64,000 bases of DNA from Hydrurus foetidus (Eukaryota): NCBI GenBank assembly GCA_900617105.1, contig UYFQ01000001.1, forward strand, positions 3,968,001 to 4,032,000, in the 5' to 3' direction. This document shows, in pieces, positions 4,443 through 54,696 of the stretch; positions within the stretch are counted from its first letter, which is position 1, and each line of letters starts with the position of its first letter. The translations under genes were made by a program, and so were the position numbers. Below the pieces are notes generated by a model that made no database searches, had not been told where the DNA came from, and was given only the letters and a program-made list of their open reading frames with translations.

Positions 4443-4518
4443 TGGTGCCGGAGAGATGAATCGAACACCCGACCTTCTCATTACGAATGAGCTGCTCTAC
4501 CGACTGAGCTACACCGGC
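4443..4518 (-). tRNA. tRNA-Thr(CGT)
   Basis: GCCGGTGTAGCTCAGTCGGTAGAGC...TT-CGT-AA loop...GTTCGATT...CCGGCACCA, 76 nt. Confidence 0.95.
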
Positions 4519-21541: not shown

Positions 21542-21594
21542 GCTATAAATATAGGAGCTGCTCGCGCCCGTATTTATTGATTAAAAGCCCTAAA
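21542..21594 (+). repeat. Interspersed repeat R2 (intergenic, between convergent genes)
   Basis: GCTATAAATATAGGAGCTGCTCGCGCCCGTATTTATTGATTAAAAGCCCTAAA. Confidence 0.9.
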
Positions 21595-22650: not shown

Positions 22651-22703
22651 ACTATAAAAATAATAGCTGGTCACACCCGTATTTATTGGGTTTTACTGGT
22701 ATT
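22651..22703 (+). repeat. Interspersed repeat R3 (intergenic)
   Basis: ACTATAAAAATAATAGCTGGTCACACCCGTATTTATTGGGTTTTACTGGTATT. Confidence 0.85.
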
Positions 22704-32571: not shown

Positions 32572-32624
32572 ACTATAAAAATAGGAGCTGCTTACGCCCG
32601 TATTGATTGGGCTAGTGGCTTATC
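32572..32624 (+). repeat. Interspersed repeat R5 (left of RHS island)
   Basis: ACTATAAAAATAGGAGCTGCTTACGCCCGTATTGATTGGGCTAGTGGCTTATC. Confidence 0.9.
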
Positions 32625-34044: not shown

Positions 34045-34097
34045 ATAATTGCTGCAGCTTAATAAACATGGGCGCGGGCAGATCCTAAATAAATAGC
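34045..34097 (-). repeat. Interspersed repeat R6
   Basis: Reverse complement GCTATTTATTTAGGATCTGCCCGCGCCCATGTTTATTAAGCTGCAGCAATTAT. Confidence 0.85.
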
Positions 34098-34122
34098 ATT
34101 TCTCGCCTGCACGGGTAGCGCC

Positions 34123-34289
34123 CAACAACCCGCTTGCGCACCCGCCCGGAGAAAACGACCAGACGGGCTTCAATTTCTAACGAGGCAGGTGTTACGACTC
34201 CGTCCTAAAGCGCTTCAGGAGTGCAAACGCGGCGGGGCAGACAGCCGCGTCAAACGGCTACCGCTACGTCAACAACGCCATTGCTGAAT
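34123..34289 (+). pseudogene. Second, more decayed RHS core remnant (copy of 33057-33223)
   Basis: Reads GENDQTGFNF*RGRCYDSVLKRF...NGYRYVNN and aligns at DNA level with the first RHS core. Confidence 0.85.
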
Positions 34290-38128: not shown

Positions 38129-38181
38129 GCTACTAAATAAATAGCTGCTCGCGCCCGTATTTATTGGGCTGCAGCCTTATT
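38129..38181 (+). repeat. Interspersed repeat R8 (near-consensus, between convergent genes)
   Basis: GCTACTAAATAAATAGCTGCTCGCGCCCGTATTTATTGGGCTGCAGCCTTATT. Confidence 0.92.
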
Positions 38182-39499: not shown

Positions 39500-39552
39500 C
39501 ATTGCTCACAATCCCAATAAATTCGGGCGCAAGCAGCTACTAAATATATAGC
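39500..39552 (-). repeat. Interspersed repeat R9 (between divergent arsC-like gene and folC)
   Basis: Reverse complement GCTATATATTTAGTAGCTGCTTGCGCCCGAATTTATTGGGATTGTGAGCAATG. Confidence 0.9.
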
Positions 39553-39602: not shown

Positions 39603-40913
39603 ATGAATTATTTACAGACTTTAGCCGACTGGCTAGCGCATTGCGAGCGGCTGCACCCCGTTGCCATTGACATGACGCTGGAGCGCGTAAAAATCGTCGC
39701 CGATCGCATGGGGCTGCGCTTTGCCTGCCCCATCATTACCGTGGCTGGCACCAACGGCAAGGGCTCCACCTGCGCCATGCTGGAAGCTATTTTGCTGGAA
39801 GCCGGTTACCGCACGGGCGTTTACACGTCCCCCCATTTGGTGGACTTTGAAGAGCGCTGCCGGGTGCGGGGAGACATCGCCAGCGCTACTGATTTAGTAG
39901 TAGCTTTCGCCCATGTTGAGGCGGCCAGGACGCAAAACGGCCCGGAAATAACACTCACTTACTTTGAGTTCACCACGCTGGCCATCATGCAACTGCTGGT
40001 TGATGCCAAGCTGGACGTGGTGATTCTTGAAGTGGGCTTGGGCGGGCGGCTGGATGCCGTCAATATCTTTGATACCGACTGCGCCATCATCACCAGCGTT
40101 GACCTCGACCACATGGCGTTTCTGGGCAACACCCGTGAAGCCATTGGGTTTGAGAAAGCCGGCATCATGCGGCCCGGCAAGCCGGTGGTGGTGAGCGACC
40201 CGCAGCCACCCCAAAGCGTGCTCGACCACGCTGCCACGGTGGGTGCTGACTTATGGAAATTTGGTACCGACTTCAATTTTTCAGGCGACAAACAGCAGTG
40301 GGGCTGGGCTGGTCGCGGGCGAAGATATGCGGGCCTGGCCTACCCGGCGCTGCGCGGCGCCAATCAGTTGATGAATGCTGCCGGGGTGTTGGCGGCACTG
40401 ACTGCGCTGCGCGATGTGCTGCCGATTACCGCGCAAGCCGTGCGGGTGGGTCTGTCGATGGTGGAGTTGCCCGGTCGTTTTCAGATCATTGCTGGCCAAC
40501 CCACGCTGGTGCTGGACGTGGCGCACAACCCGCATTCGGTCGCTGCCTTGGTTGAAAACCTCGACGCCATGGGCTTTTACCCCTGCACCCACGCCGTGTT
40601 TGGTGCCATGGCCGACAAAGACGTGACCCCGATGCTGGCCAGAATGGGCCCGTTGATTGACAAGTGGTACTTCACTGATTTGCCAACCGAGCGCGCCGCA
40701 ACCGCCGACGCGTTGCTAGGCAAATGGCGCGCTAACAACACACGAAAAGACGCCCTTGCCAGCGCTTACATATCGCCTGAAACCGCACTCGCTTCAGCAG
40801 TCGCTGCGGCTGACCCCGCTGATAGAATTGTGGTGTTCGGATCGTTCTATACCGTCGGTGGAATTTTGAAAAACGGTCTGCCGCGCCTTGGTGCCAAACA
40901 CTTAGCTGCCTAA
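39603..40913 (+). CDS. folC: Dihydrofolate synthase/folylpolyglutamate synthase
   Basis: GTNGKGS, TSPHL, EVGLGGRLD, LDVAHNP, FGSF. Confidence 0.96.
   Translation: MNYLQTLADWLAHCERLHPVAIDMTLERVKIVADRMGLRFACPIITVAGTNGKGSTCAMLEAILLEAGYRTGVYTSPHLVDFEERCRVRGDIASATDLVVAFAHVEAARTQNGPEITLTYFEFTTLAIMQLLVDAKLDVVILEVGLGGRLDAVNIFDTDCAIITSVDLDHMAFLGNTREAIGFEKAGIMRPGKPVVVSDPQPPQSVLDHAATVGADLWKFGTDFNFSGDKQQWGWAGRGRRYAGLAYPALRGANQLMNAAGVLAALTALRDVLPITAQAVRVGLSMVELPGRFQIIAGQPTLVLDVAHNPHSVAALVENLDAMGFYPCTHAVFGAMADKDVTPMLARMGPLIDKWYFTDLPTERAATADALLGKWRANNTRKDALASAYISPETALASAVAAADPADRIVVFGSFYTVGGILKNGLPRLGAKHLAA
39885..39937 (+). repeat. Degenerate repeat copy R10, in frame within folC (sense)
   Basis: GCTACTGATTTAGTAGTAGCTTTCGCCCATGTTGAGGCGGCCAGGACGCAAAA, read as ATDLVVAFAHVEAARTQN in the same register as R1 and R13. 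Confidence 0.55.
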
Positions 40914-40996: not shown

Positions 40997-41872
40997 ATGT
41001 CGTTTTTTAACTTTCGCCGGGGTTCCAATTCTGCACCCCAGCCGCCGGGCGCCGGGCAGCCAGAAACGATGGACGCGATTCGCAAACGGGCCAAGCACAG
41101 GTTGATAGGTGCAGCCGTTTTGGTGCTGATTGGCGTAGTTGGCTTTCCGCTGCTTTTTGATGCACAGCCCCGCCCGGTGGCCGTCGACATCCCGATCGAG
41201 ATCCCTGGCAAAAATAGCGTCAAGCCTTTGACGCTGCCCGCCAAACCCGATGCGCTGAGCAGCGCACCGAACAAATCCGAGTCCCAAGCAGTTGCGGCAA
41301 AACCTGAACAGACCGAAAAGACCGAAAAGACCGAAAAGACAGACAAAGTGGCTGCTGCGGCCAGTTTGGGCAGCCAAGAAGAAATAGTGACAGATAAAAA
41401 GCCTGAAGCCCAATTAAAACAGGCGCCAGCGGCTATAAAAAAAGAAGCAGATAAAGTCGCTAAGGCAGAGCCAGCAACTCCTTCAAAACCTGAACCGAAG
41501 CCTGAAGCCAAGCCCGAACCCAAGCCCGAAACCAAACCTGAAACCAAGCCAGTTGCCAAGATTGACGACGGCGCCCGAGCCAAGGCTTTGCTAGACGGCC
41601 AAAGCGCCACCGCCCCCAAGCCTGCAGCTGCTAATGCTGCCGATCAACGATTGGTGGTGCAGGTCGGCGCGTTCGCAGACGCCGACAAGGCCAAAGAAGT
41701 ACGGCAAAAACTCGAAAAAGCGGGCCTCAAAACCTACACCCAAGTAGCGCAAACCAAAGACGGCGAGCGCACCCGCGTGCGTGTGGGCCCGTTTGCCAGC
41801 AAGGCTGATGCCGAAAAAGCCGCCAGCAAAATCAAATCGCTTGATTTGCCCGCCGCCATATTGACGCTGTGA
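40997..41872 (+). CDS. dedD: SPOR-domain cell division protein, DedD-like
   Basis: RLIGAAVLV TM segment, Pro/Lys/Glu linker, VQVGAF...RVRVGPF SPOR domain; folC-dedD-cvpA-purF synteny. Confidence 0.88.
   Translation: MSFFNFRRGSNSAPQPPGAGQPETMDAIRKRAKHRLIGAAVLVLIGVVGFPLLFDAQPRPVAVDIPIEIPGKNSVKPLTLPAKPDALSSAPNKSESQAVAAKPEQTEKTEKTEKTDKVAAAASLGSQEEIVTDKKPEAQLKQAPAAIKKEADKVAKAEPATPSKPEPKPEAKPEPKPETKPETKPVAKIDDGARAKALLDGQSATAPKPAAANAADQRLVVQVGAFADADKAKEVRQKLEKAGLKTYTQVAQTKDGERTRVRVGPFASKADAEKAASKIKSLDLPAAILTL
41311..41345 (+). repeat. 9-bp coding tandem repeat (GACCGAAAA; TEK) in the dedD linker
   Basis: GACCGAAAA x3 followed by GACAGACA. Confidence 0.85.
41396..41448 (-). repeat. Repeat copy R11, in frame within dedD (antisense)
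   Basis: Plus strand GCCCAATTAAAACAGGCGCCAGCGGCTATAAAAAAAGAAGC aligns ungapped with R14; read as AQLKQAPAAIKKEA. Confidence 0.75.
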
Positions 41873-42354
41873 CCACACTGGATTGGGCGCTGCTCGGCGT
41901 GTTGGGGCTGTCGATGTTGATCGGCGCCTGGCGCGGGCTGGTGTACGAAGTTTTGTCGGTGATGGGCTGGGCGGTGTCTTTTTTCGCGGCACAGTGGTTT
42001 GCGCCTGTTGTGGCCAGCATGTTGCCGCTGCAGTCGGCTGGCCAGTCTGTGCGTTATGCGGCGGCGTTCGTGCTGGTATTTATCGGTGTGCTGGTGGTGT
42101 GCAGCTTGTTAACGGTAGCGATTAAAAAGTTTGTGCAGGCGGTGGGGCTGCGGCCAATAGACAGAACTCTAGGCGCAGGTTTTGGCCTGCTGCGTGGGGT
42201 AATTTTGCTGCTGGCGGCTACCGTCGTGATGAACATGACCGCGCTGAAAAACAGCAGCTGGTGGCAAGAGTCCACGGGGGCAGGTGTATTGAATACAGCC
42301 TTGATTACGCTCAAGCCGATGCTGCCAGAACAGTTTGCAAAGTATTTGATTTAA
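41869..42354 (+). CDS. cvpA: CvpA family protein
   Basis: RGLVYE, DRTLGAGFGLLRG; synteny. Confidence 0.9.
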   Translation: MTTLDWALLGVLGLSMLIGAWRGLVYEVLSVMGWAVSFFAAQWFAPVVASMLPLQSAGQSVRYAAAFVLVFIGVLVVCSLLTVAIKKFVQAVGLRPIDRTLGAGFGLLRGVILLLAATVVMNMTALKNSSWWQESTGAGVLNTALITLKPMLPEQFAKYLI

Positions 42355-42392
42355 CCCGAAATTCGAACCAAAATTTTCATGAAGAAAACACC

Positions 42393-43910
42393 ATGTGCGG
42401 CATAGTCGGCGTCGTTAGCCAAGCGCCGGTTAACCAGTTAATTTACGACGGCTTGCTGCTGCTGCAACACCGTGGGCAAGACGCGGCGGGCATCGTTACG
42501 CAGCTTGACCGCAAATTTTTCATGCATAAAGCCAAAGGCATGGTGCGCGATGTTTTTCGTACCCGCAACATGCGTGCGCTGCCGGGCAATGTCGGTTTGG
42601 GGCAGGTGCGTTACCCCACTGCAGGCAATGCGTTCAGTGAAGACGAGGCGCAGCCGTTTTACGTCAACGCGCCTTTCGGCTTGGTGCTGTCGCACAACGG
42701 CAACTTAACCAACGCGGCCGAGCTAAAGGCCGAGCTGTTCAACACCGACCATCGGCACATCAACACCGACAGCGACTCTGAAGTACTTCTCAATGTGCTG
42801 GCCCATGAGCTCGAAAAAACCACGCGCGGCCTGCCGTTAAAAGCAGCTGATGTGTTTGCCGCGGTGCGCGGCGTACACCAGCGCGTGAAGGGCTCTTACG
42901 CCGTGGTGGCGCTGATTGCGGGGCACGGCTTGCTGGCGTTTCGTGACCCGTTCGGCATCAGGCCGCTGTGCATGGGCAGCACATCGGTCGGCGGCGCGCG
43001 CACCGTGATGGTGGCCAGCGAGTCCGTGGCGCTTGACGGCACAGGCCACCAGTTTGACCGCGACATCGACCCCGGCGAGGCCGTGTTTGTCGATTTGGAC
43101 GGCCAGGTGTACGCCCAGCAATGCGCTGCCAACGCGGTGCTCAAACCCTGCATTTTTGAATTTGTGTACTTGGCCCGGCCCGACTCGGTACTCAGCGGTA
43201 TTTCGGTTTACCAGGCGCGACTAAATCTCGGTGAAACGCTGGCCAAGAGAGTCATTTCTACTGTGCCGCCGAACGAGATTGACGTGATTATTCCGATCCC
43301 CGAGTCGAGCCGCCCAAGTGCCACGCAACTCGCGCATTTACTGGGTATTCCGTATCGCGAAGGCTTTGTTAAAAACCGCTACGTGGGCCGCACCTTCATC
43401 ATGCCGGGGCAGGGCGTGCGCAAAAAATCGGTGCGCCAAAAGCTCAACGTGATTGCCAGCGAATTCAAAGGCCGCAACGTGCTGCTGGTAGACGACTCAA
43501 TTGTGCGCGGCACCACCAGCCGAGAGATTGTGCAAATGGCGCGTGATGCCGGCGCAAAAAAAGTGTATTTAGCCAGCGCTGCGCCGCCCGTTCGCTTTCC
43601 TAACGTGTACGGCATTGACATGCCGACCTCAGCCGAGCTGGTGGCGCACGACCGCACTGTGGAGCAGATTCGCGTGGCGATTGGGTGCGACGCGCTGATT
43701 TATCAAGATGTTGACGGCATGAAGCGCGCCATCGGCTCGCTTAACCCGAAGCTCGATGGCTTTGATGCATCGTGTTTTGATGGCGTGTACGTCACGGGCG
43801 ACATCACGCCCGAATCAATTGCCAAAATGAACGCGGGCCGCATAGACAGCGGTGAAGAAGGCGGCGTGGATGTGTCGCGCCTGGCGCTGCCCAATCCTGA
43901 AGAAGTGTGA
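42393..43910 (+). CDS. purF: Amidophosphoribosyltransferase
   Basis: MCGIVG, QHRGQD, VDDSIVRGTTS. Confidence 0.97.
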   Translation: MCGIVGVVSQAPVNQLIYDGLLLLQHRGQDAAGIVTQLDRKFFMHKAKGMVRDVFRTRNMRALPGNVGLGQVRYPTAGNAFSEDEAQPFYVNAPFGLVLSHNGNLTNAAELKAELFNTDHRHINTDSDSEVLLNVLAHELEKTTRGLPLKAADVFAAVRGVHQRVKGSYAVVALIAGHGLLAFRDPFGIRPLCMGSTSVGGARTVMVASESVALDGTGHQFDRDIDPGEAVFVDLDGQVYAQQCAANAVLKPCIFEFVYLARPDSVLSGISVYQARLNLGETLAKRVISTVPPNEIDVIIPIPESSRPSATQLAHLLGIPYREGFVKNRYVGRTFIMPGQGVRKKSVRQKLNVIASEFKGRNVLLVDDSIVRGTTSREIVQMARDAGAKKVYLASAAPPVRFPNVYGIDMPTSAELVAHDRTVEQIRVAIGCDALIYQDVDGMKRAIGSLNPKLDGFDASCFDGVYVTGDITPESIAKMNAGRIDSGEEGGVDVSRLALPNPEEV

Positions 43911-43911
43911 A

Positions 43912-45126
43912 ATGACTACCAACAAATTACCCGACAACCTGCACCGCGACACGCTGGCCGTGCGCGTGGCCATCGAGCCTAGCCAGTACGGCGAAAACTC
44001 CGAAGCGCTGTACTTGACCAGCGGCTTTTTGCAACCTGATGCCGAGACGTCGGCACGGCGTTTTGCAGGCACTGAAGACGGCTATACCTACGGCCGCACT
44101 TCCAACCCAACCGTGACCAGTTTTGAGCGCCGCCTTGCCGCAATGGAGGGTACTGAAGCCGCCATTGGCGCGTCGACTGGCATGGGCGCTATTTTGATGA
44201 TGTGCATGGGCCTCTTGAAGTCAGGTGACCACGTCATCTGCTCGCGCTCGATGTTCGGCTCCACCATTAATTTGATTGGCCGCGAGTTTGGCAAGTTTGG
44301 TGTGGAGACCAGCTTTGTTTCACAAACCGATGTGACTGAGTGGAAAGCCGCGCTGCGCCCCAACACCAAAATACTTTTTGCTGAAACGCCGACCAACCCC
44401 TTGACTGAGGTTTGCGACATTGCGGCGCTGGCTGACCTGGCACACAGCGCAGGCGCGTTGCTGGCCGTAGACAACTGTTTTTGCTCGCCTGCCTTGCAGC
44501 GCCCGATTGAGTTTGGTGCAGACTTGATCATCCATTCCGGCACTAAATATCTGGATGGCCAGGGCCGCGTGATGGCAGGCGCGATTTGCGGGCCCAGCAA
44601 ACTCATCGTCGATGTGTTCGGCCCGATTGTGCGCACCGCCGGCATGACGCTTGCGCCCTTTAATGCATGGGTAGTGCTCAAGGGGTTAGAGACTCTTGGT
44701 ATACGCATGCAGGCGCAAAGCGCCAATGCGCTGGCTATAGCGAAGTGGCTCGAAACCCAAAGCGCCGTGGCGCGTGTTTATTACCCCGGTTTGGCATCGC
44801 ACTCGCAGCACGATTTGGCGATGCGCCAGCAGTCAGGTGTGGGCGGGCCCGTGCTGTCGTTTGAGCTGCGGGGTGACACAGCTGATGCAGCTCGCGCCAA
44901 TGCATTTCATGTCATCAACAGCACCCAAGTGGTGAGTATTGCCACCAACTTGGGTGACACCAAAACCATCATTTGTCACCCGGGTACCACGTCGCATGGC
45001 CGCTTGACCGAGCAGCAACGCCAAGCTGCGGGCATTAGCCAAGGTTTGATTCGCCTGGCAGTTGGCCTGGACCATGTGGAAGACATCAAGGCCGATTTAC
45101 GGCGCGGCCTGGACAGCTTGAAATGA
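43912..45126 (+). CDS. metZ: O-succinylhomoserine sulfhydrylase
   Basis: [26 protein letters not shown]; follows purF. Confidence 0.88.
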
Positions 45127-46547
45127 CACCAACAACCCAAACGCGCACACGTTTTGCGCCGTCGCCGACAGGATTTATTCACCTTGGCAATATTCGCTCG
45201 GCGCTGTACCCGTGGGCATTTGCTCGCGCTACAGGCGGCGTGTTTGTGCTGCGTATTGAAGACACGGATGTTGAGCGCTCAAGTCAAGAGGCGGTAGATG
45301 TCATCATTGAAGGCATGCGCTGGCTGGGGCTTAACCACGACGAAGGCCCGTTTTTTCAAATGCAGCGCATGGCGCGGTACAAAGCGGTGCTGGCTGATTT
45401 GTTAGCCGCCGGTCATGTGTACCCCTGCTACATGAGCGTGGCCGAGCTTGACACACTGCGCGAAGCGCAAACCGCAGCCAAGCAAAAGCCGCGCTACGAC
45501 GGAACCTGGCGGCCCGAGCCGGGCAAAACGCTGCCAGCGGTGCCTGCAGGCGTACAACCCGTGCTGCGTTTCAAAAACCCGCAAGGCGGCTCGGTGGTGT
45601 GGGAAGACAAGGTCAAAGGCCGCATTGAAATCAGTAACGACGAGCTCGATGATTTGGTCATCGCCCGGCCGGACGGAACACCAACTTATAACTTTTGCGT
45701 GGTCGTAGACGATATCGACATGTCGATTACGCACGTGATTCGCGGCGACGACCACGTCAACAACACGCCGCGCCAAATCAATATTTTTCAAGCGTTGGGA
45801 AAAGACGTGCCGGTGTATGCGCACCTGCCCACCGTGATGACTGAGTCGGTTGATGAGCACGGCGAAAAACACGTGGCGAAGATGTCCAAGCGCAACGGGG
45901 CAAAACCCGTTACGCAATTTGCCGCTGAAGGATTTTTGCCTGATGCAGTGGTTAACTATCTCGCGCGGCTGGGTTGGAGTCACGGCGACGATGAAATCTT
46001 CAGTCGCGAGCAGTTTGTGAGCTGGTTTAATTTGGATCATTTGGGCAAAAGCGCAGCGCAGTTTGATGAAGCCAAACTGCGTTGGGTCAATGCCCAACAC
46101 CTCAAAGCGATGAGCGATGAAGCGTTGGCCGAAAGTGTTAAACCGTTTTTGGCAGTTGGCGTTGCTGCCGCCATTGCGCCTGCTCAGTTGGTTCGCGGCT
46201 GTGGCTTATTCAAAGACCGCTGCAGCACGCTGGTGGAACTTGCGGCTTGGCTAGACAAACTGGTATTGCCCGCGCAGCCCGGCGCCGACGATATGGCGGC
46301 GCACGTCACACCCGCCGCGCGGCCAGCAATCGAAAAATTAAGTCTGGCACTGGCCGCCTGCGAATGGAATAAAGCGGGTATCGCAGCGGCCATCAAGCAA
46401 GTGCTGCAAGACACCGGCTTGAAAATGCCGCAACTTGCCATGCCAGTGCGAGTCCTGGTGATGGGTACGCCACAAACCCCGTCGGTTGACGCGATTTTGG
46501 AGTTGATGACGCCCGCGGATGTGATTGCCCGGCTTTCGGTCTATTGA
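45123..46547 (+). CDS. gltX: Glutamate--tRNA ligase
   Basis: [29 protein letters not shown]. Confidence 0.96.
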
Positions 46548-46551
46548 GCCC

Positions 46552-46581
46552 TTGAAAGGCCTCGCTTTTTCGGGCTATAAT
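46552..46581 (+). promoter_or_regulatory. Sigma70-type promoter of the tRNA operon
   Basis: TTGAAA-N18-TATAAT, 39 nt upstream of tRNA-Ala. Confidence 0.65.
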
Positions 46582-46620
46582 TCAAGGCTCGACAGAAATT
46601 GCAGCAATGCAAAATCTAAA

Positions 46621-46627
46621 GGGGGTA

Positions 46628-46669
<42 letters not shown>

Positions 46670-46696
46670 TCGGTTCGATCCCGTTTACCTCCACCA
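46621..46696 (+). tRNA. tRNA-Ala(GGC)
   Basis: Cloverleaf, CTTGC-AT-GGC-AT-GCAAG anticodon arm, CCA end. Confidence 0.96.
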
Positions 46697-46796
46697 ATTC
46701 ACATTGGTGAGTCGTTGAGAAGGATTTGATTTTTGAGAGAGTTTTTGTCTGGTTGATGCAGAAATGCTAAAACCTTTCTGGAAGTTCCAAGGCTTT

Positions 46797-46872
46797 GACC
46801 CCATCGTCTAGAGGCCTAGGACATCACCCTTTCACGGTGAGTACCGGGGTTCGAATCCCCGTGGGGTCGCCA
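46797..46872 (+). tRNA. tRNA-Glu(TTC)
   Basis: TCACC-CT-TTC-AC-GGTGA anticodon arm, GTTCGAATC, CCA end. Confidence 0.96.
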
Positions 46873-46994
46873 AGTTTTTACTGCAAAGTAAAATGGCACA
46901 AGCAGGCAGCAGCCTTCAGCAATGAAGGCACTTGGCTCGAAAGAGTGAACGCTGTTTAAAGTTGCCTAGTCGAGAAATCGGCTAGCGGCTACCA

Positions 46995-47071
46995 GGAGTG
47001 GTAGTTCAGTTGGTTAGAATACCGGCCTGTCACGCCGGGGGTCGCGGGTTCGAGTCCCGTCCGCTCCGCCA
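46995..47071 (+). tRNA. tRNA-Asp(GTC)
   Basis: CCGGC-CT-GTC-AC-GCCGG anticodon arm, CCA end. Confidence 0.96.
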
Positions 47072-47075
47072 GTTT

Positions 47076-47111
47076 AAAAGCCTTGTTGCTCATTGAGTAA
47101 CAAGGCTTTTT
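47076..47111 (+). terminator. Intrinsic terminator of the tRNA operon
   Basis: AAAAGCCTTGTTGCTC-ATT-GAGTAACAAGGCTTTTT. Confidence 0.85.
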
Positions 47112-47152
47112 GCTTACTCAAGCTCAGCAAAGTTTGCCCCACAATCGTTTGC

Positions 47153-47809
47153 ATGAAAAAACACTTTTCTGAAACTACTGGCCCGCAGCGTTTGGCCTAC
47201 GGCCTGGTTACCGCCGTGGCAGTAGCCGCACTGCCTTTGCCTATGGGCGGGGAATTTCGGGCGCTGCTGGCGTGGTGCGCCGGGTTGGCGGTGTATTTGG
47301 GCCTGGCCTGGTGGCTGTGTGTGGGCTTTGACGCTGAGCGCACTCGCGCGCGGGCGCAGGCGCAAGACGAGCCAAGCGCAGTGTTGTTTTTGGTGCTGCT
47401 GTTGGCCAATGTAGTTTGCGTGGCGGCTATCACGGTGCTGATGCAGCAAAGCCAGGATTTGTCGGGCCTGCAGCGCGGGCTGCATATTGGCTTGTCGGTG
47501 CTGGCGCTGGCGGCGTCGTGGCTGTTTATTCAAACCATGTTTACGTTTCGGTATGCGCACCGCTATTACTTTGAAGAAAAGCAAGCCGAGTCTGATGGTG
47601 CGGGCCTGAAATTTCCGGGCGGTTTGGATCCGGATTATTTTGACTTTTTGTACTACGCTTTTGTGGTGGGCATGACGTCTCAGGTGTCTGACGTGCAAGT
47701 CACGTCGCGTGAAATGCGCCGGTTAACCATGCTGCATGGCGTGCTGTCTTTTGGCTTCAATATGCTTATATTGGCGCTTAGTATCAACGTGGTGGCGGGC
47801 CTGCTCTAA
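47153..47809 (+). CDS. DUF1345 family membrane protein
   Basis: YAHRYY, FPGG..PDYFDFLY, GMTSQVSDV. Confidence 0.88.
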   Translation: MKKHFSETTGPQRLAYGLVTAVAVAALPLPMGGEFRALLAWCAGLAVYLGLAWWLCVGFDAERTRARAQAQDEPSAVLFLVLLLANVVCVAAITVLMQQSQDLSGLQRGLHIGLSVLALAASWLFIQTMFTFRYAHRYYFEEKQAESDGAGLKFPGGLDPDYFDFLYYAFVVGMTSQVSDVQVTSREMRRLTMLHGVLSFGFNMLILALSINVVAGLL

Positions 47810-48689
47810 ATTTGACCAAACCGGTGGCCAGTGCCGTTCCACAAACAATGATTGCCGCGCAAAGCACCATCCACGGCGTGATGACTTCTTTTAAAAACAC
47901 GGCGCCATAAAGCACTGCAAACACCGGGATTAAAAATGTCACGGTCAGCGTTCGCTGCGGGCCGGCTTTTTCAATCAGTCTGAAAAACAAAATGTAGGCG
48001 ATGCCGGTGCACGCCACGCCTAGCACCACCAGCGCGGCCCAGGCAGTGGCGCTGGGTGCGGTTTGTGGCCACAGCCAGAGGGCAGGCAAACACAGCCCAA
48101 GCGTGGCGCCGATCTGGCTCCCCGCTGCGGTCACCATGGGGTTGATGCCGCCCATGTATTTTTTGGTGAAACTTGCTGCGTAGCCGTAGCACACGCAGGC
48201 CAGCAAACACGCCAGCACCGCCCAACCGGGCGCGATGCCCGAGGCGTCAGGTTTGAAGGTGGCCTTGTCCCACGCCAGCAGGGCGACGCCTGCAAAGCCA
48301 ATCACCAGCCCTGCAACGCGGGTCAGCGCGGGCTTGTCTTTAAGCCAGACCCATGCGATCAATGCGGCAAACATGGGCGTGGTGGCATTCAAAATGGCTG
48401 ACAAACCCGTGGTGATGGCCAGCAATGAAAACGCAAAACACGCAAACGGAATAGCCGAGTTGAAAAGGCCCAGAAAAAAGATCTTTTTCCAGTGTTGCTT
48501 CAACTCTGGCAGCAGGCCTTTCAGCACCACAATCGGCAGCAAAAACAGCGCGGCTATGCCCACGCGGGCAGCCGCTACGGGCAGCGGCCCAAAGTCGGCC
48601 AAAGCCAGCCGCGTGAATAAAAAGGATGAACCCCACATCGCGCCCAGGGCCACGTAGTCGGCCAGCCAGGCTTTTTTAGCAGTCGTCAA
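47784..48689 (-). CDS. EamA/DMT family transporter
   Basis: WGSSF, ILNATTP, ten hydrophobic segments. Confidence 0.9.
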   Translation of the reverse strand: MTTAKKAWLADYVALGAMWGSSFLFTRLALADFGPLPVAAARVGIAALFLLPIVVLKGLLPELKQHWKKIFFLGLFNSAIPFACFAFSLLAITTGLSAILNATTPMFAALIAWVWLKDKPALTRVAGLVIGFAGVALLAWDKATFKPDASGIAPGWAVLACLLACVCYGYAASFTKKYMGGINPMVTAAGSQIGATLGLCLPALWLWPQTAPSATAWAALVVLGVACTGIAYILFFRLIEKAGPQRTLTVTFLIPVFAVLYGAVFLKEVITPWMVLCAAIIVCGTALATGLVKFRAGPPPR

Positions 48690-49207
48690 AACAGATTCTC
48701 GGCAATTGCGCCCTCAAGCTTGAGCAGCGCGGTTTTACGGTCAAGCCCACCAGCATAGCCCGTTAGCGAGCCGTCTGCGCCCAGCGCCCGATGGCACGGC
48801 ACGATGATGCTGATCGGGTTGCGGCCTACAGCAGCGCCCACTGCCCGCACGGCCGCGGTGTTGCCGATGGTTTTACTGATACTGCCGTAGCTGCAAGTTT
48901 GGCCGGTGGCAATTTGCAACAGCGCTTGCCACACCGCTTGTTGAAAGGCGGTACCGCCAGACAAATCAAGCGTTAAATCGAACCCACTGCGCTCCCCCGC
49001 AAAGTATTCGGTGAGTTGCTTGGCGGCTTTTTTCAATACCGGATGCGCCGGATTCACTGGCCAACCTGGCGCCGCTGACAGCTCTGCGGGCAAGTGGCGC
49101 TGGCCGTCAAACCACACGCCCGCCAGCCCTGCGTGGGTTGCTGCCAGCGTCATGCTGCCCAAGGGGCTTTGGTAGGCACTTTGAACGATTGAAGGGTCGA
49201 ATTTCAT
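48686..49207 (-). CDS. ogt: Methylated-DNA--protein-cysteine methyltransferase
   Basis: GTAFQ, RAVG, VPCHR, LLKLE; start taken at ATG 49207. Confidence 0.92.
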   Translation of the reverse strand: MKFDPSIVQSAYQSPLGSMTLAATHAGLAGVWFDGQRHLPAELSAAPGWPVNPAHPVLKKAAKQLTEYFAGERSGFDLTLDLSGGTAFQQAVWQALLQIATGQTCSYGSISKTIGNTAAVRAVGAAVGRNPISIIVPCHRALGADGSLTGYAGGLDRKTALLKLEGAIAENLF

Positions 49208-49222
49208 GGTGTTTCCGTATAT

Positions 49223-49275
49223 TTTAGGGCTGTAGCCCAATAAATTCGGGCGCGAGCAGCTCATTAATTAATAGC
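49223..49275 (-). repeat. Interspersed repeat R12 (inside the ada-alkA/ogt operon spacer)
   Basis: Reverse complement GCTATTAATTAATGAGCTGCTCGCGCCCGAATTTATTGGGCTACAGCCCTAAA. Confidence 0.92.
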
Positions 49276-49278
49276 AAT

Positions 49279-50829
49279 TTATGCTAGTTTCATCTCTGCC
49301 CCACGCCACGTACCGGACCACGCTCGTATCACGGCATAACTGCGCCAGGGCTTCCACGGCAACGATGCAGCATCAGCCAGCCGTGCGGGGTTTTTAAGAC
49401 CCTGCACACCCAATATTTTGTGCAGCGCTACATCGCCCGCTGGAAAAGCGTCGGGCCAGCGCAGCGCGCGCATGGCGATGTACTGGGCCGTCCAGTCGCC
49501 AATGCCAGGCAACGCCTTCAGAGCTGCAACCGTGGCCTCTACATCTGCGCCGCCGTGCAGCTGCAATCCGCCAGCCACTGCCTTGGCCAGGCCAACGATG
49601 GCCGCTTGGCGTTGCCTGACGATGCCGAGTTGCCCCAGTTCATCGCCACTTGCCGCCGCCAGCACGGAAGGCGACGGAAACAGCTTGGTCAGCTCAGGCC
49701 ACGGCGTAACCATGGGCTCGCCGAACTTGTCGACCAGGCGCTGCGCCAGCGTGCGCGCCGCTGCCACCGTGATCTGCTGGCCCAACACGGCGCGCACCGC
49801 CAGCTCAAAGCCATCTAGTGCGCCGGGTACGCGCAGGCCGTCGCCTGTGGGAAAGTCGTCATGCAGCACCGTGTTAATGGCCTGGGGGTCGGCGTCTAAA
49901 TCAAATGCGGCACGTACCCGGCGAATCACCAGTGGCAGTACGCCGCAAAGCGAATCTGACACGGTCACCACCAGCTGCGAGCGCGCAATATCAAAGCGCA
50001 TTGCCAGCCAGCCAATGTGCTTTTTGCCTGCTGTTTCAGTACTAAATGTGCGTCTAGCCCAATATTCTTGGGCGTTAGCAGCTATAGATTCAATAGCAAT
50101 TGATTCGATGGTTTTAATGCGCCGGGTTTCCATGAACGCCAGCATGGCGGCCACGTCGTACGGTGGCCGAAAGCCCAGTTTGATAGTGATGCCTTGCGCA
50201 CTGCTGGTTGCGGGCGCGGCACGCCGCAACTGGGTTGGGTTGAGGTGGTAGTGCGCCAAAAACGCGGCATTAAAGCGCCGCACGCTGGCAAAGCCGCTCA
50301 TCAATGCAATCTGCGTGATGGGCAATAGCGTGTCTGCCAGCAGTTGCTTGGCATTGAGCAGCCTTCGCGTTTGCAGGTATCGCAGGGGCGACACGCCAAA
50401 TTGCGCTTCAAAAATACGGTGCAGATGCCTGGCCGAAATGCCAAGCTTTAACGCCAGCTTTTCTACAGACACCGGGGCGCTTGAACAACCCTCTGGTTCA
50501 TCCAGCAAACGCGCTGCCTGGTGCGCCAAAATATAAGAAGCATCTTGAATCGACCACACCACCGAATGCGGCGCCAGCTCTGGCCGGCAGCGCAGGCAAG
50601 GCCGGAAACCTGCGCTTTCTGCCTGCGCAGCCATACCGAAAAAGCGGCAGTTTTCGCGCTTGGGCGCTTTGACGCTGCACACCGGGCGGCAGTAAATACC
50701 GGTGGATGTCACGCCAGTAAAAAAGCTGCCGTCAAACCGGGCGTCGCGTGCCTTCATGGCAGCGTAGCAAGCGTCTGCCGATTCGCTGATATGGCTGCGG
50801 GTGGGGGTGCTGATCGTTTGCACTGACAT
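49279..50829 (-). CDS. alkA: Ada Zn-binding + AraC HTH + AlkA DNA-3-methyladenine glycosylase fusion
   Basis: GIYCRPVC, FRPCLRCRP, HTH, LGQQIT, LPGIGDWTA, WRSYA. Confidence 0.93.
   Translation of the reverse strand: MSVQTISTPTRSHISESADACYAAMKARDARFDGSFFTGVTSTGIYCRPVCSVKAPKRENCRFFGMAAQAESAGFRPCLRCRPELAPHSVVWSIQDASYILAHQAARLLDEPEGCSSAPVSVEKLALKLGISARHLHRIFEAQFGVSPLRYLQTRRLLNAKQLLADTLLPITQIALMSGFASVRRFNAAFLAHYHLNPTQLRRAAPATSSAQGITIKLGFRPPYDVAAMLAFMETRRIKTIESIAIESIAANAQEYWARRTFSTETAGKKHIGWLAMRFDIARSQLVVTVSDSLCGVLPLVIRRVRAAFDLDADPQAINTVLHDDFPTGDGLRVPGALDGFELAVRAVLGQQITVAAARTLAQRLVDKFGEPMVTPWPELTKLFPSPSVLAAASGDELGQLGIVRQRQAAIVGLAKAVAGGLQLHGGADVEATVAALKALPGIGDWTAQYIAMRALRWPDAFPAGDVALHKILGVQGLKNPARLADAASLPWKPWRSYAVIRAWSGTWRGAEMKLA
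50045..50097 (-). repeat. Repeat copy R13, in frame within ada-alkA (sense)
   Basis: Reverse complement GCTATTGAATCTATAGCTGCTAACGCCCAAGAATATTGGGCTAGACGCACATT, read as AIESIAANAQEYWARRTF. Confidence 0.88.
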
Positions 50830-50944
50830 GGCATTTATCTTACCTGCGCTGTCGGTTTTGACTGGCCGTTTTCGGACATGTCATCGGCGCCTTGGCAACC
50901 TACAATAAAATTCTTTTTCTCCTCAAGCACCTGGCTCACACTCC

Positions 50945-52354
50945 ATGCAACTCAACCCTTCGATCTTCAAGGCTTACGACATACGCGGCGTCGTGCCTGC
51001 TGCGATCAATGAAGACATGGCTTTCTTGCTGGGCAAGGCATTTGGTGTGGCGGCCATTGCTGCCAAAGAAAAAACGGTTGCGGTTGGCCGTGATGGGCGT
51101 TTAAGCGGCCCGGCGCTGGCTGCGGCGTTGATGCGCGGGCTGGTCGCCAGCGGTGTTGACGTGATTGACGTGGGCATGGTCACCACGCCTATGCTGTACT
51201 TTGCTGCCAACACACTGTGCACATCAGGCATTCAGGTCACGGGCAGCCACAACCCGAAGGACTACAACGGTTTCAAAATGGTATTGGCAGGCCGTGCCAT
51301 TTATGGCGACGAAATACAAGCGTTGCGCCACGCGATGGTCAATGATGGTTTGGCTGCGCAGTTGCTCGGCAGCGCAACACCGCAGGCAACTGACGGCAAG
51401 GTAACGCAACATGACGTAACTGCGGCCTACTCGGCACGCATTGCCAGTGACGTCAAGCTGGCACGCCCCATGAAGATCGTGATCGACTCTGGCAACGGCG
51501 TTGCAGGCAACTCGGCACCTGGTATTTTCAGAGCCTTGGGTTGCGAGGTGATTGAGCTTTTCAGTGAAGTCGACGGCAATTTTCCTAACCACCACCCCGA
51601 CCCCAGCAAGCCTGAGAATTTGACCGATTTGATAGCCGCACTAAAAACCAGCGGCGCTGAGCTGGGCCTGGCATTTGACGGCGACGGTGACCGGCTGGGC
51701 ATCGTCACGCAAGACGGCCAAAACATTTACCCTGACCGGCAAATGATGCTGTTTGCCCGCGACGTGCTTTCACGCGTGCCCGGCGGCACGATTGTGTTTG
51801 ACGTGAAATGCTCACAGCGCCTGGCGCCTGAAATTGCTGCCGCAGGCGGCGTACCGCTGATGTACAAAACCGGCCACTCGCTGATCAAAGCCAAAATGAA
51901 GGAAATAAATTCACCTTTGGGCGGCGAGATGAGCGGGCACATCTTTTTTAAAGAGCGCTGGTACGGGTTTGACGACGGCACCTATGCCGGAGCGCGCCTG
52001 CTTGAAATACTCAGCCGCTCAAAAGAGGCGAGCGCAGTGCTCAATGCGCTGCCAACCAGCTTTAGCACGCCTGAGCTGAACGTGTCTTGCAATGAAGGCG
52101 AACCGCATGCGCTGGTTGATGCTTTGTTGAAAACTTCTCACTTTGCGCCGCCAGCTGTAATCAATAGCATCGACGGGATTCGAGTTGATTGGCCAGACGG
52201 CTTTGGTTTGATTCGCGCATCTAACACCACGCCGGTGCTGGTGCTGCGCTTTGAAGGCCACACCCAGGAAGCCCTGCACCGCATTGAGGCCGACATGTGG
52301 GCGCTGCTGCGCACGGTGAAGCCCGATGCCGGCGTTGCGGCTGCCAGTCATTGA
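50945..52354 (+). CDS. Phosphomannomutase/phosphoglucomutase (AlgC-like)
   Basis: FKAYDIRG, TGSHNP, FDGDGDR, GEMSGH, RASNT. Confidence 0.94.
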   Translation: MQLNPSIFKAYDIRGVVPAAINEDMAFLLGKAFGVAAIAAKEKTVAVGRDGRLSGPALAAALMRGLVASGVDVIDVGMVTTPMLYFAANTLCTSGIQVTGSHNPKDYNGFKMVLAGRAIYGDEIQALRHAMVNDGLAAQLLGSATPQATDGKVTQHDVTAAYSARIASDVKLARPMKIVIDSGNGVAGNSAPGIFRALGCEVIELFSEVDGNFPNHHPDPSKPENLTDLIAALKTSGAELGLAFDGDGDRLGIVTQDGQNIYPDRQMMLFARDVLSRVPGGTIVFDVKCSQRLAPEIAAAGGVPLMYKTGHSLIKAKMKEINSPLGGEMSGHIFFKERWYGFDDGTYAGARLLEILSRSKEASAVLNALPTSFSTPELNVSCNEGEPHALVDALLKTSHFAPPAVINSIDGIRVDWPDGFGLIRASNTTPVLVLRFEGHTQEALHRIEADMWALLRTVKPDAGVAAASH

Positions 52355-52369
52355 GCTGACTGATCGTTG

Positions 52370-53365
52370 ATGCGGGTTTTGATTGTCAAACTGTCGTCGC
52401 TGGGCGACGTGGTGCATACGCTGCCGGTGGTGCAAGACATGTTGAGCGCACTGCCTGACGCGCAGATTGACTGGGTGGTTGAAAAAGCTTTTGCGCCGCT
52501 CCTCAAGCAGGTACAAGGCTTGAGCCGAGTCATTCCGTGCGAGCTGCGGCGCTGGCGCAAATCATGGTGGGCAGCACAAACGCGGCGAGAGTGGCGGGCA
52601 TTTAAAACTGACTTGCAAACCAATAGCTACGACGCCATCATTGACCTGCAAGGCTTGACCAAATCTGCCGTGGTAGCGCGCACTGCCAAGCTGACATCTG
52701 CGGGCAAACGCTACGCTATGGCCAACCAAACCGATGGCTCAGCTTACGAAGCGCCAACCCGCTGGGTGGCCGATGTACCGATTGCGCTGGACAGGCATTT
52801 GCATGCTGTGGCGCGCGGCAGGCAGCTGGTTGCAACTGCTTTGGGTTACAGCGCTGAATTGCCCAAAAAGGTGCTTGATTACGGCTTAAATGTGCCTATA
52901 GCCCAATTAATACGGGCGCGAGCAGCTCCTAAAAATATAGCGTTTATTCATGGCACATCACGTGCCGACAAGCAGTGGCCGCTGCAAAACTGGATAGAAC
53001 TGGGCCAGCGCTGTGTGGCCCAGGGTAGCCACATCACGCTGGTGCACGGCGGCGCACAAGAGCTGGCCACCAGCCAGGCGATAGCAAAGCAATTGGGCAG
53101 CAACTGCACCGTTTTGCCTTTACTTGCCCTCGACGCTTTGGCCGAGGCACTTGGCCGCTGCACAGGCGCAATCGGTGTCGACAGCGGCGTTAGCCACATT
53201 GCAGTGGCGCTGGGTTTGCCACATGTGCAAATTTATAACTTTGACACTGCCTGGCGCACAGGGCCGCTGGGTTGCAGCCAACAGGTCAGCGTGTTTGCCC
53301 AGCCTCATCCGTCTGTTGATGTGGTGTGGCAGGCTTGGCTGCAATCTGAAAGCGCTTTACCGTGA
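52370..53365 (+). CDS. waaC: LPS heptosyltransferase I
   Basis: KLSSLGDVVH, DLQGL, HGTSR, GVDSG..H. Confidence 0.9.
   Translation: MRVLIVKLSSLGDVVHTLPVVQDMLSALPDAQIDWVVEKAFAPLLKQVQGLSRVIPCELRRWRKSWWAAQTRREWRAFKTDLQTNSYDAIIDLQGLTKSAVVARTAKLTSAGKRYAMANQTDGSAYEAPTRWVADVPIALDRHLHAVARGRQLVATALGYSAELPKKVLDYGLNVPIAQLIRARAAPKNIAFIHGTSRADKQWPLQNWIELGQRCVAQGSHITLVHGGAQELATSQAIAKQLGSNCTVLPLLALDALAEALGRCTGAIGVDSGVSHIAVALGLPHVQIYNFDTAWRTGPLGCSQQVSVFAQPHPSVDVVWQAWLQSESALP
52889..52941 (-). repeat. Repeat copy R14, in frame within waaC (antisense)
   Basis: Reverse complement GCTATATTTTTAGGAGCTGCTCGCGCCCGTATTAATTGGGCTATAGGCACATT; gene reads NVPIAQLIRARAAPKNIA. Confidence 0.92.
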
Positions 53366-54696
53366 GTGCTTTGTTGCTCCGTTTGTATTCGGCCGCAATG
53401 CGCCTGGCCCAGCCGCTGCTGCGTCGCAAAATGGCGCGGCGAGCCGTACAAGAGCCTGGTTATGCCGAGGCAATTGATGAACGCTTCGGGCGCTACACCC
53501 AGCCGCGCGAAACCGCTTCAAACCTGGTGTGGCTGCACGCCGTGTCGCTGGGCGAAACCCGTGCTGCTGCCATCTTGCTAAAAGCGCTGCGGGCGCGTGA
53601 CCCCGGCTTGCGCGTGTTGCTAACGCACGGCACCGCTACGGGCCGTGCCGAGGGCAGGGCGCTGTTGCAGCCCGGCGATGTGCAGGTGTGGCAACCGTGG
53701 GACACCCATGCAGTCGTGGAGCATTTTTTTGAACATTTCAAGCCGCGCTTGGGCTTGCTGATGGAAACCGAGGTCTGGCCCAGCCTGGTGGCAAGCGCGC
53801 ATGCACGCGGCATACCGCTGGTGCTGGTCAATGGCAGGTTGTCTGAAAAGTCATTGCAGCAAGCCTTGCGCCTGTCGCCACTGGCCCGCCCAGCCTACGG
53901 CGTGTTGACGGCGGTGTACGCGCAAACCGAGAGCGACGCCGCGCGTTACCGGCAATTAGGTGCGCATGTTGCCGGTGTGTTTGGAAACCTTAAATTTGAT
54001 GCCCAGCCCGACCCTGCTCAGCAGGCGTTGGCCAAGGCGTGGCGAGAATCGTGGCCGCAGCAAATGCGTCAGCCGGTGGTCATGCTGGCCAGCTCGCGGG
54101 AAGGCGAAGAAGCCCTTTTTTTAGAGCAAATAAAGCTCTTTGCCCAACAAATACGGGCGCGAGCAGCTATTAATTCAACAGTACCGAAGTGGCTCATCGT
54201 GCCGCGCCATCCGCAGCGTTTTGATGAAGTGGCGGCGTTGGCTGCGCAATCCGGGCTGTCGGTGTCGCGCCGTTCAAGCTGGCCAGGCAGCCCCGCCCAA
54301 AGTGCTGATGCGTTGCAGGCCGATGTGTGGCTGGGCGATTCGCTCGGCGAAATGGCGCTTTACTATTGCCTGGCTGATGTAGCGCTGCTGGGCGGTAGTT
54401 TTGAAAAGCTCGGTGGTCAAAACTTGATTGAAGCAGCAGCTGCGGGTTGCCCCGTGGTGATGGGACCGCATACTTTTAATTTTGCTGAAGCTGCGCAGTT
54501 GGCCGTCGAAAGCGGTGCTGCTTTCAGTTGCGCCGACATCAGCGGCGCTGTTGCGTTTGCTCTTCAATTAGTAGCTGATGAACCAGCACTAGCAAGTGCC
54601 AGCCTGGCTGCAGCGGCATTTTCATCGAACCACCAAGGGGTAACTGAGCGGTATGCTGGCGCGCTAGCTGCCTTCCTTGAGCCCAGTGCCGCTTAA
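53362..54696 (+). CDS. waaA: 3-deoxy-D-manno-octulosonic acid (Kdo) transferase
   Basis: WLHAVSLGE, ETEVWP, GNLKFD, VPRHPQRF, GGQNLIEAA. Confidence 0.95.
   Translation: MSALLLRLYSAAMRLAQPLLRRKMARRAVQEPGYAEAIDERFGRYTQPRETASNLVWLHAVSLGETRAAAILLKALRARDPGLRVLLTHGTATGRAEGRALLQPGDVQVWQPWDTHAVVEHFFEHFKPRLGLLMETEVWPSLVASAHARGIPLVLVNGRLSEKSLQQALRLSPLARPAYGVLTAVYAQTESDAARYRQLGAHVAGVFGNLKFDAQPDPAQQALAKAWRESWPQQMRQPVVMLASSREGEEALFLEQIKLFAQQIRARAAINSTVPKWLIVPRHPQRFDEVAALAAQSGLSVSRRSSWPGSPAQSADALQADVWLGDSLGEMALYYCLADVALLGGSFEKLGGQNLIEAAAAGCPVVMGPHTFNFAEAAQLAVESGAAFSCADISGAVAFALQLVADEPALASASLAAAAFSSNHQGVTERYAGALAAFLEPSAA
54130..54182 (-). repeat. Repeat copy R15, in frame within waaA (antisense)
   Basis: Reverse complement ACTGTTGAATTAATAGCTGCTCGCGCCCGTATTTGTTGGGCAAAGAGCTTTAT; gene reads IKLFAQQIRARAAINSTV. 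Confidence 0.9.
54559..54611 (+). repeat. Possible highly degenerate repeat copy R16 near the waaA 3' end
   Basis: GCTCTTCAATTAGTAGCTGAT matches only the first ~20 nt; same register (ALQLVADE). Confidence 0.35.

Follow-up and report, generated by a model that had tools for sequence, protein, structure and literature searches.

The window analysed here is the whole of a 64,000-nucleotide stretch of DNA recorded under Hydrurus foetidus (GenBank assembly GCA_900617105.1, contig UYFQ01000001.1, positions 3,968,001 to 4,032,000 of the forward strand). Dispersed over it are 15 copies (R1 to R15) of a DNA motif that lies between genes and also, in frame, inside genes such as pepN, folC, dedD, waaC, and waaA. 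An earlier note on this DNA had regarded the motif as an inserted repeat with a built-in stop codon, lost from all antisense coding copies through selection for translated, tolerated insertions. The underlying element is real and more unusual than that note supposed. We aim to underline that the motif is probably a site constrained at the DNA level rather than a tolerated insertion, a description that covers a role in DNA uptake as well as one in chromosome structure.

Judged by its sequence, the window is DNA of a Polaromonas-like bacterium. Its waaA is 95–97% identical to Polaromonas sp. records, and the DNA of the relative G001 is 96–97% identical to the window. The genome-scale numbers below rest on two relatives (G031 and G001) plus the window itself. 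A profile scan of the window yielded the 15 copies, against a shuffled maximum of 4. In the list, A0 to A2 denote the motif read antisense and S0 to S2 the motif read in sense; A2 and S0 are the antisense and sense registers of the earlier note, and the antisense codon to which it had assigned the stop is called the marked codon.

6465..6510, minus strand: R1 core, inside pepN (5599-8307, minus), sense frame S0; 4 residues longer than solved PepN (4qme/2gtq)
21542..21587, plus strand: R2, intergenic core; marked codon TAA, stop in S0 too
22651..22696, plus strand: R3, intergenic core; marked codon TAA
28374..28419, plus strand: R4, very weak intergenic copy (score 1.4); marked codon TGA
32572..32617, plus strand: R5, intergenic core; marked codon TCA, no stop
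34052..34097, minus strand: R6, intergenic core; marked codon TAA
34381..34426, minus strand: R7, intergenic core; marked codon not a stop
38129..38174, plus strand: R8, intergenic core with convergent genes on either side; marked codon TAA, stop in S0 too
39507..39552, minus strand: R9, intergenic core upstream of folC; marked codon TAA; common to G001 and G031
39885..39930, plus strand: R10, degenerate core inside folC (39603-40913, plus), S0, over a conserved segment without indel
41403..41448, minus strand: R11 core, inside dedD (SPOR-domain gene, 40997-41872, plus), A2, in a low-complexity linker; marked codon TTA; score 38.5
49230..49275, minus strand: R12, intergenic core flanked by the stop of alkA (49279) and the probable start of ogt (49207); marked codon TAA, stop in S0 too; score 69.6; same site in G031
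50052..50097, minus strand: R13 core, inside ada/alkA (49279-50829, minus), sense frame S0
52826..52895, minus strand: expected R14 arm, phased A/T at motif positions of about +47 to +115, predicted from the average copy profile and not from this copy; every other core should likewise have an arm on its tail side
52896..52941, minus strand: R14 core, inside waaC (52370-53365, plus), antisense A2, in the interdomain linker; marked codon TTA
54137..54182, minus strand: R15 core, inside waaA (53362-54696, plus), antisense A2, in a variable loop; marked codon CAA

Two copies are weak, R4 and R10 scoring 1 and 14 against 39–70 in the other 13, and the folC orthologue of R10 in G031 scores 65. The R11 site is absent from the dedD orthologue of G031 (score −46; 10 residues shorter over 66), and remnants of its peptide occur in other genera. 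The dedD linker also carries short tandem repeats at 41306-41340 and 41490-41550, and three strain contigs lack a 9-bp unit. In alkA, the motif head ahead of R13 is duplicated in tandem over 15 bp (50098-50112, encoding IESIA twice), in G001 as well but not in G031; the net gain over a site-free Polaromonas orthologue is 4 residues in G031 and 9 in the window. R14 adds 3 residues relative to E. coli WaaC and 6 to 15 relative to the shortest site-free family orthologues, and R15 about 10 to 12 relative to the shortest site-free orthologues. In Variovorax, where a scan of three loci found no copy, a remnant of the WaaA peptide persists at a DNA score near −40. Next to R12, an ATG at 49264 would lengthen ogt by 19 codons through the copy in the rarely used S2 frame; the gene caller chose 49207. 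The host open reading frames (ORFs) of the window's coding copies are intact, conserved, and match Pfam, from which translation across these copies can be inferred.

Anatomy and distribution of the motif

The large sample comprises 355 copies, drawn from the window, from 0.28 Mb of G001, and from 1.37 Mb of G031, a relative with a genome of 3.6 Mb. The density is about 200 copies per Mb; that of G001 is biased upward because its contigs were picked for holding hits. Genes were called with a dicodon model of our own (85% coding), without annotation. The copies divide into 210 intergenic ones, 34 overlapping a gene end, and 111 (31%) inside genes, about 10 of the latter being orthologous pairs and hence non-independent. 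One genome, G032, is part of the genus-wide counts and (as row L026) of the waaC and waaA sets, and no conclusion leans on it.

The motif measures about 115 bp in total, with a core of about 49 bp (60 bits, 46% GC) and an arm that adds 17 bits. It starts sharply with an imperfect palindrome, in which seven AT-rich bases separate GCTAT from ATAGC; next come a GC-rich block and another, AT-centred one. Positions 13–14, ahead of an invariant AG, read GT in 39, GG in 75, and AT in 70 of 206 copies. The arm, which lies only on the tail side and has no right boundary, is made of A/T tracts with a 10.5-bp period that can be followed to about +115. At +49 to +81 its amplitude in 208 intergenic copies is 0.26, compared with 0.02 on the opposite side and 0.01 for background A-tracts. 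The 104 coding copies reach 0.25, whereas the highest of 100 synonymous shuffles gives 0.18. The highest mutual information is found between adjacent tract positions that are AA or TT. Because these AA and TT tracts are interchangeable and stand in helical phase, we infer protein binding and DNA wrapping, and the motif would be a double-stranded site recognised partly through its shape.

Three models were rejected on covariation, duplication, and copy-identity tests, namely a hairpin, an insertion with target duplication, and a master copy. In 206 copies, mutual information across the arms of the potential hairpin does not exceed 0.06, where shuffles reach up to 0.10; only the spacer pairs 7/11 and 8/10 lie above that ceiling. 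The best excess for a target duplication is 0.03–0.06, i.e., none was found. Among 152 intergenic copies of G031 there are no identical cores, the nearest-neighbour identity is 0.863 (0.841 in column shuffles), and 4 sequences exceed 95%. The head plus core may resemble relaxase nick regions.

The motif is overrepresented genome-wide and in both orientations, with 694 pattern matches in G031 versus 30 for controls. An exact match occurs in 75 of 151 family genomes, about 30 of which have more than 20 (by reading of the table). Within the genus, 70 of 81 genomes match, with a range of 0 to 427, and the near-complete genomes G028 and G256 have no head match at all. In the closed genome G067 the strands are mixed (38/30) and the bins uniform (chi2 p = 0.41), and replichore polarity was ruled out by its full copy list. 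Orientation inside genes is balanced as well (56 sense, 55 antisense). Gaps between convergent genes hold 51 copies (117 gaps), those between tandem genes 114 (579 gaps), and those between divergent genes 22 (199 gaps); many intergenic copies begin no more than 25 bp from a stop codon (median distance 24.5 bp). Neighbours closer than 1 kb are rarer than random (15.8% vs 22.8±2.3%).

Five inverted doublets have their cores 108–121 bp apart and their arms facing. In G031, doublets were noted at L147 (~4276), L141 (~1145), L146 (~14079), and L193 (~14477 and ~15612); a further locus of this kind is L220 (1112-1324). They adjoin small modules that resemble RelE/HigB- and PIN-type toxin-antitoxin systems (named by eye from translations) or a second gene for a REP-associated tyrosine transposase (RAYT; REP, repetitive extragenic palindrome). 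At a site after trpA, the cargo differs between G031 and G027.

Viral contigs carry the motif too: 64 loci have the exact head, at or in genes for terminase, primase, portal, and repressor proteins (46 proteins scanned), and some of them may be the host flanks of prophages. The copies on these phage or prophage contigs (L264-L327) are single, some of them in frame in large genes; with an amplitude of 0.12, their arm is weaker, and also shorter, than that of the Polaromonas copies. A blastn search with one 91-bp copy against plasmids and phages gave no match, at a low sensitivity for so degenerate a motif. Rfam returned no family at gathering score and one unrelated sub-threshold match. No description of the motif was found in the open-access literature searched.

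Reading frames, protein lengths, and silent sites

The stop counts on which the earlier note relied are right. Seven of nine intergenic copies in the window have a stop at the marked codon (TAA in R2, R3, R6, R8, R9, and R12, TGA in R4) versus none of the three antisense coding copies (TTA in dedD and waaC, CAA in waaA; Fisher p = 0.045). Likewise, the S0 stops in intergenic R2, R8, and R12 and the presence of AINS in both pepN and waaA are borne out, and the Fisher test that the note had proposed, applied to the large sample, gives 128 of 210 intergenic versus 0 of 47 A2 coding copies (p = 8e-17). The contrast is circular, however, because a stop in frame is impossible in a gene that is open; it follows from labelling a copy as coding. 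As posed, the finding is mostly a tautology. Nor is the stop "built-in": the middle base of the codon is among the most variable positions of the motif (T in 105, C in 56, G in 32, and A in 17 of the 210 intergenic copies), and 82 of the 210 have no stop. We tentatively suppose that this degenerate position of the motif carries a sense codon wherever it comes to lie in frame, and that no stop was "lost" from an inserted element.

The claim of one register per orientation holds in the window (six of six coding copies) and fails in the larger sample, where 86 of 111 in-gene copies use A2 or S0 and 25 use the other four frames; it is a small-sample effect. In detail, the in-gene frames are A2 in 47, S0 in 39, S1 in 15, A1 in 6, S2 in 2, and A0 in 2 copies. 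Among the 210 intergenic copies, S0 is open in 140, A1 in 76, S2 in 73, A2 in 55, S1 in 46, and A0 in 1, the last being blocked because of a near-invariant TAG. A pure stop filter thus predicts S0 40, A1 22, S2 21, A2 16, S1 13, and A0 0, from which the observed frames depart (chi2 = 89, p = 2e-18): A2 is three times overused and S2 ten times underused. Frame use relative to openness tracks the commonness of the encoded residues (rho 0.9, n = 5).

Protein lengths bear on whether the coding copies were inserted or arose in place. The folC copy is gap-free against the solved FolC chains 1w78 and 3n2a (from E. coli and a second enterobacterial species), with 4 extra residues just after the site. 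The segment has equal length in 32 aligned orthologues, whose DNA scores are graded from −101 to +65, the 16 motif-rich genomes scoring above the 11 motif-free ones (Mann-Whitney p = 2e-4, with kin not independent). In a wider Pfam length test, 91 of the 111 in-gene copies had enough flank, 15 were dropped (window copies and orthologous duplicates), and 76 were sent as fragments of their host genes, 56 of which matched a family. For the 48 matches that span the site, the gain is no more than 5 residues in 29, 7–14 in 9, and at least 15 in 10, the median being +3 (without a random-fragment control). A comparison with the motif-free outgroup G151 gave 19 listed matches, several of them paralogous. 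Since it covers only 0.4 Mb of 2.6 Mb, the Pfam and PDB lengths carry most of the length argument. It shows sites of the same length and in register (CbiX and YggS-type) and also gains (glpK +11, methylase +24). Given the 29 of 48 at 5 residues or fewer and an outgroup with both kinds of site, in-place overprinting is probably the commoner state, next to a real minority of length gains.

Among those gains, several sites are longer by about 36–45 residues, close to the length of the full unit. The copy inside comEC of G031 (gene at L148 11694-14346) has the highest score (76 bits) and adds about 37 residues. By eye, the comEC match span is about 830–900 nt in most motif-free genomes and up to 981 nt in many motif-rich ones. 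The coding copies are old and common to the genus, and strain contigs from four DNA runs have no gap at any site among the matches listed.

Constraint on the DNA itself shows at silent sites, for which we built the profile from intergenic copies only and chose the sites by orthology, not by score. In synonymous shuffles, z is higher in motif-bearing orthologues than at baseline for folC (5.1 vs 1.75; 16 vs 11 sequences), waaC (4.8 vs 1.5; 29 vs 16), and waaA (4.6 vs 2.1; 32 vs 31). Four-fold-site identity among orthologues of less than 80% protein identity is 487/608 and 437/548 (0.80) in the waaC and waaA sites, as opposed to 0.53 elsewhere, in the 19 of 27 and 19 of 32 rows that pass a peptide anchor. 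Amino-acid identity, by contrast, is lower inside the waaC and waaA sites than outside them. Because silent positions are constrained, the coding copies are not merely tolerated. The selection for translated, tolerated insertions proposed by the earlier note survives in part, in that protein-level filtering shapes frame use; the coding copies for the most part do not look like insertions, and their silent positions are under constraint.

What the motif may be

We tentatively favour the view that the motif is a double-stranded site of about 115 bp, read and bent by a host protein complex and most likely similar to an uptake signal, i.e., the uptake signal sequences (USS) of Pasteurellaceae and DNA uptake sequences (DUS) of Neisseria. 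Sites would accumulate by point mutation plus biased recombination, improving step by step wherever the encoded peptide is tolerated; to a lesser extent, loops would gain them through small duplications or insertions in frame. We rank this view first because the apparent in-place origin, the frame bias, the poorly conserved residues, and the one-sided phased tracts match uptake sequences (PMC2817400, PMC3458573); overrepresentation on both strands (G031, G067) and in-gene frame bias are traits of such sequences as well. Competence genes are present, with comEC in 76 of 81 genus genomes (50 of 50 good ones) and HHH_3 (ComEA-type) and pilin genes in 20 of 20.

Several observations weigh against this view. 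The comEC, HHH_3/ComEA, and pilin genes occur alike in motif-free and motif-rich genomes. A 60-bit core with a 17-bit arm far exceeds an uptake core of 9–12 bp. No close inverted pairs that could form terminators were seen among 284 neighbours (shortest core-to-core gap 95 bp), and the coefficient of variation of the gaps does not clearly differ from random (0.91 vs 0.98±0.06). Of the 48 spanning sites, 10 gain 15 residues or more (comEC 37), which leaves room for a whole inserted unit, and DNA scores are bimodal with few intermediate sites. The four-fold identity of 0.80 uses selected rows, and raw alignment columns inside the sites give only 0.56 and 0.59. The correlation of copy presence with dicodon typicality is rho 0.10 (5-kb bins, p = 0.11), with no clear depletion in atypical DNA; uptake sequences are reported to be missing from genes without homologues. 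As tracking factors for the motif, RAYT, comEC, HHH_3/ComEA, and pilin were all rejected, being present whatever the motif count.

The same core and phased arm could also belong to a chromosome-structuring site, similar to a strong gyrase site or bound by a clade-specific nucleoid protein, which would be protein-wrapped and selected for a function in cis every few kilobases, including inside genes. We consider this unlikely. Positive supercoils build up between convergent genes, and the motif is enriched in convergent gaps; neutral space-filling gives that enrichment too. Inverted doublets with facing arms at 108–121 bp and copies in phage genes would fit, as would the preference of E. coli gyrase for arms with 10.75-bp periodic G/C and A/T (PMC6379681), but the gyrase motif is degenerate and two-armed, as opposed to a 60-bit core with a single arm (amplitude 0.26 vs 0.02). 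There is no gradient along the closed G067 genome. Moreover, the motif is dispensable, because G028 and G256, near-complete genomes of the same genus, do without it.

The view of the earlier note can be extended to an ancient mobile repeat of the REP type or of the Rickettsia palindromic element (RPE) type, moved by a Y1 (RAYT) nuclease, inserted in tolerated frames, and later trimmed and refreshed by conversion. This is improbable to a similar degree in our judgement. The 10 sites with at least 15 extra residues, the several near unit length, and the gains in glpK and methylase speak for it, as do the bimodal scores and a GTAG/GGAG/ATAG tetramer in the core. Zero-indel, in-register overprints of conserved segments speak against it, because such sites (folC, CbiX) cannot be plain insertions. 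Near-identical subfamilies, hairpin covariation, target duplication, and a fixed right end are all missing, and no gap at a site appears among the strain-contig matches listed. A Y1/RAYT gene is found in all 81 genus genomes, and inverted doublets adjoin toxin-antitoxin modules in G031 and, in G027, a second RAYT. The conserved RAYT, however, has no motif within 1.5 kb in G001 and G031 and is present in motif-free genomes, and the doublet interiors are mutually unrelated bar one local duplicate. Among RAYT flanks, one copy lies nearby in G027 and weak copies in G108, and one second RAYT has a doublet on one side only. Being single-copy in 81 of 81 genomes suggests a domesticated function of RAYT, unrelated to motif count. 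The Y1/RAYT-family gene (L216 1378-2175; L217 1363-2166) lies upstream of a glutamate-synthase-like gene.

Very improbable, finally, is a transcription-factor box or a structured RNA element acting as terminator or stabiliser. With its T-N11-A palindrome, the head may be of LysR type, and the start of many intergenic copies close to a stop codon would suit an RNA element; yet orientation inside genes is unbiased, divergent promoter gaps are avoided, base-pair covariation is absent, and Rfam has no family at gathering score.

Sequence-specific uptake signals have been described for two bacterial families (PMC2817400, PMC3458573). Going further than the uptake-like view as such, one may propose that Comamonadaceae carry a third, independently evolved, and far longer signal of DNA self-recognition, with a 60-bit core and an eight-turn wrapping arm, under a drive strong enough to rewrite conserved parts of the essential enzymes FolC, WaaA, and WaaC as well as resident phage genes, and gained or lost wholesale between species of a single genus. 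We hold this to be doubtful. If true, this would be a third system, a long and wrapped signal in a family abundant in fresh water and soil, and would predict a new sequence-reading protein. Under any leading explanation, DNA-level selection is measurable and overrides codon choice and amino-acid conservation in essential genes, and motif-rich and motif-free species in one genus offer a comparative handle on the factor. The stop-codon contrast alone is of little consequence.

Some features of the window stand apart from the motif. The gene-poor region at 32.5–34.4 kb holds a second, 168-nt direct repeat (33056-33223 and 34122-34289, 73% identical) and a 129-aa ORF (33295-33684) without Pfam match. 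Three tRNA genes follow a gltX-like gene (46621-47068), and one lies at 4446-4518.

Comparison with known systems

The betaproteobacterial repeat element (BRE) is also found in Polaromonas and other Comamonadaceae and is sometimes genic (PMC3110155). It is about 90 bp long with 69% GC, in tandem, and in at most 29 copies, whereas the core of our motif has 46% GC. Identity with BRE was rejected, the BRE sequences listed in the supplement lacking the motif core in a by-eye comparison.

With strong gyrase sites of E. coli, the motif shares a helically periodic arm of A/T versus G/C that fits wrapping and indirect readout, as well as a total length of about 115–130 bp (PMC6379681). Whereas our motif is asymmetric and has a highly specific core, that of gyrase is degenerate and symmetric, its arms measuring 47 bp.

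REP sequences and REP doublets forming hairpins (REPINs), which go with RAYT (GTAG and CGTC families), resemble the motif in their high copy number, patchy occurrence among species, enrichment in convergent gaps, occasional inverted doublets, some genic copies, and a Y1 gene in the genome (PMC3733652). The main text of that source has no occurrence of Polaromonas, Acidovorax, or Comamona-. Unlike REPs and REPINs, the motif has no compensated stem-loop, consists mostly of singletons with low copy-to-copy identity, carries a long phased arm, and lies in genes in 31% of cases.

RPEs are likewise dispersed palindromic repeats found in frame inside unrelated housekeeping genes (PMC10969869, PMC3733652). 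They are insertions of about 150 bp that add a conserved peptide, whereas most testable copies of the motif add 5 residues or fewer; its peptides diverge faster than the host protein, and DNA rather than peptide is conserved. Traits of RPEs and of miniature inverted-repeat transposable elements are missing, with no right boundary, no target duplication, and a majority of in-gene copies that are not insertions (a minority may be).

Closest in character are USS and DUS (PMC2817400, PMC3458573). These sequences, too, are scattered by the hundred over both strands. They originate in place and not through insertion, as most copies of the motif appear to do, and are often genic with a strong frame bias and poorly conserved residues; in USS, T tracts in helical phase also flank the core on one side. 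Their cores of 9–12 bp are non-palindromic, whereas that of the motif, palindromic at its head, spans about 49 bp and holds about 60 bits. The arm of USS has 2 tracts and that of the motif about eight turns, and USS and DUS reach 0.8–0.9 copies per kb as opposed to about 0.2. The motif further differs in that no terminator pairs were seen and some sites add length. Possibly, the motif is a DNA-uptake signal of a new kind.

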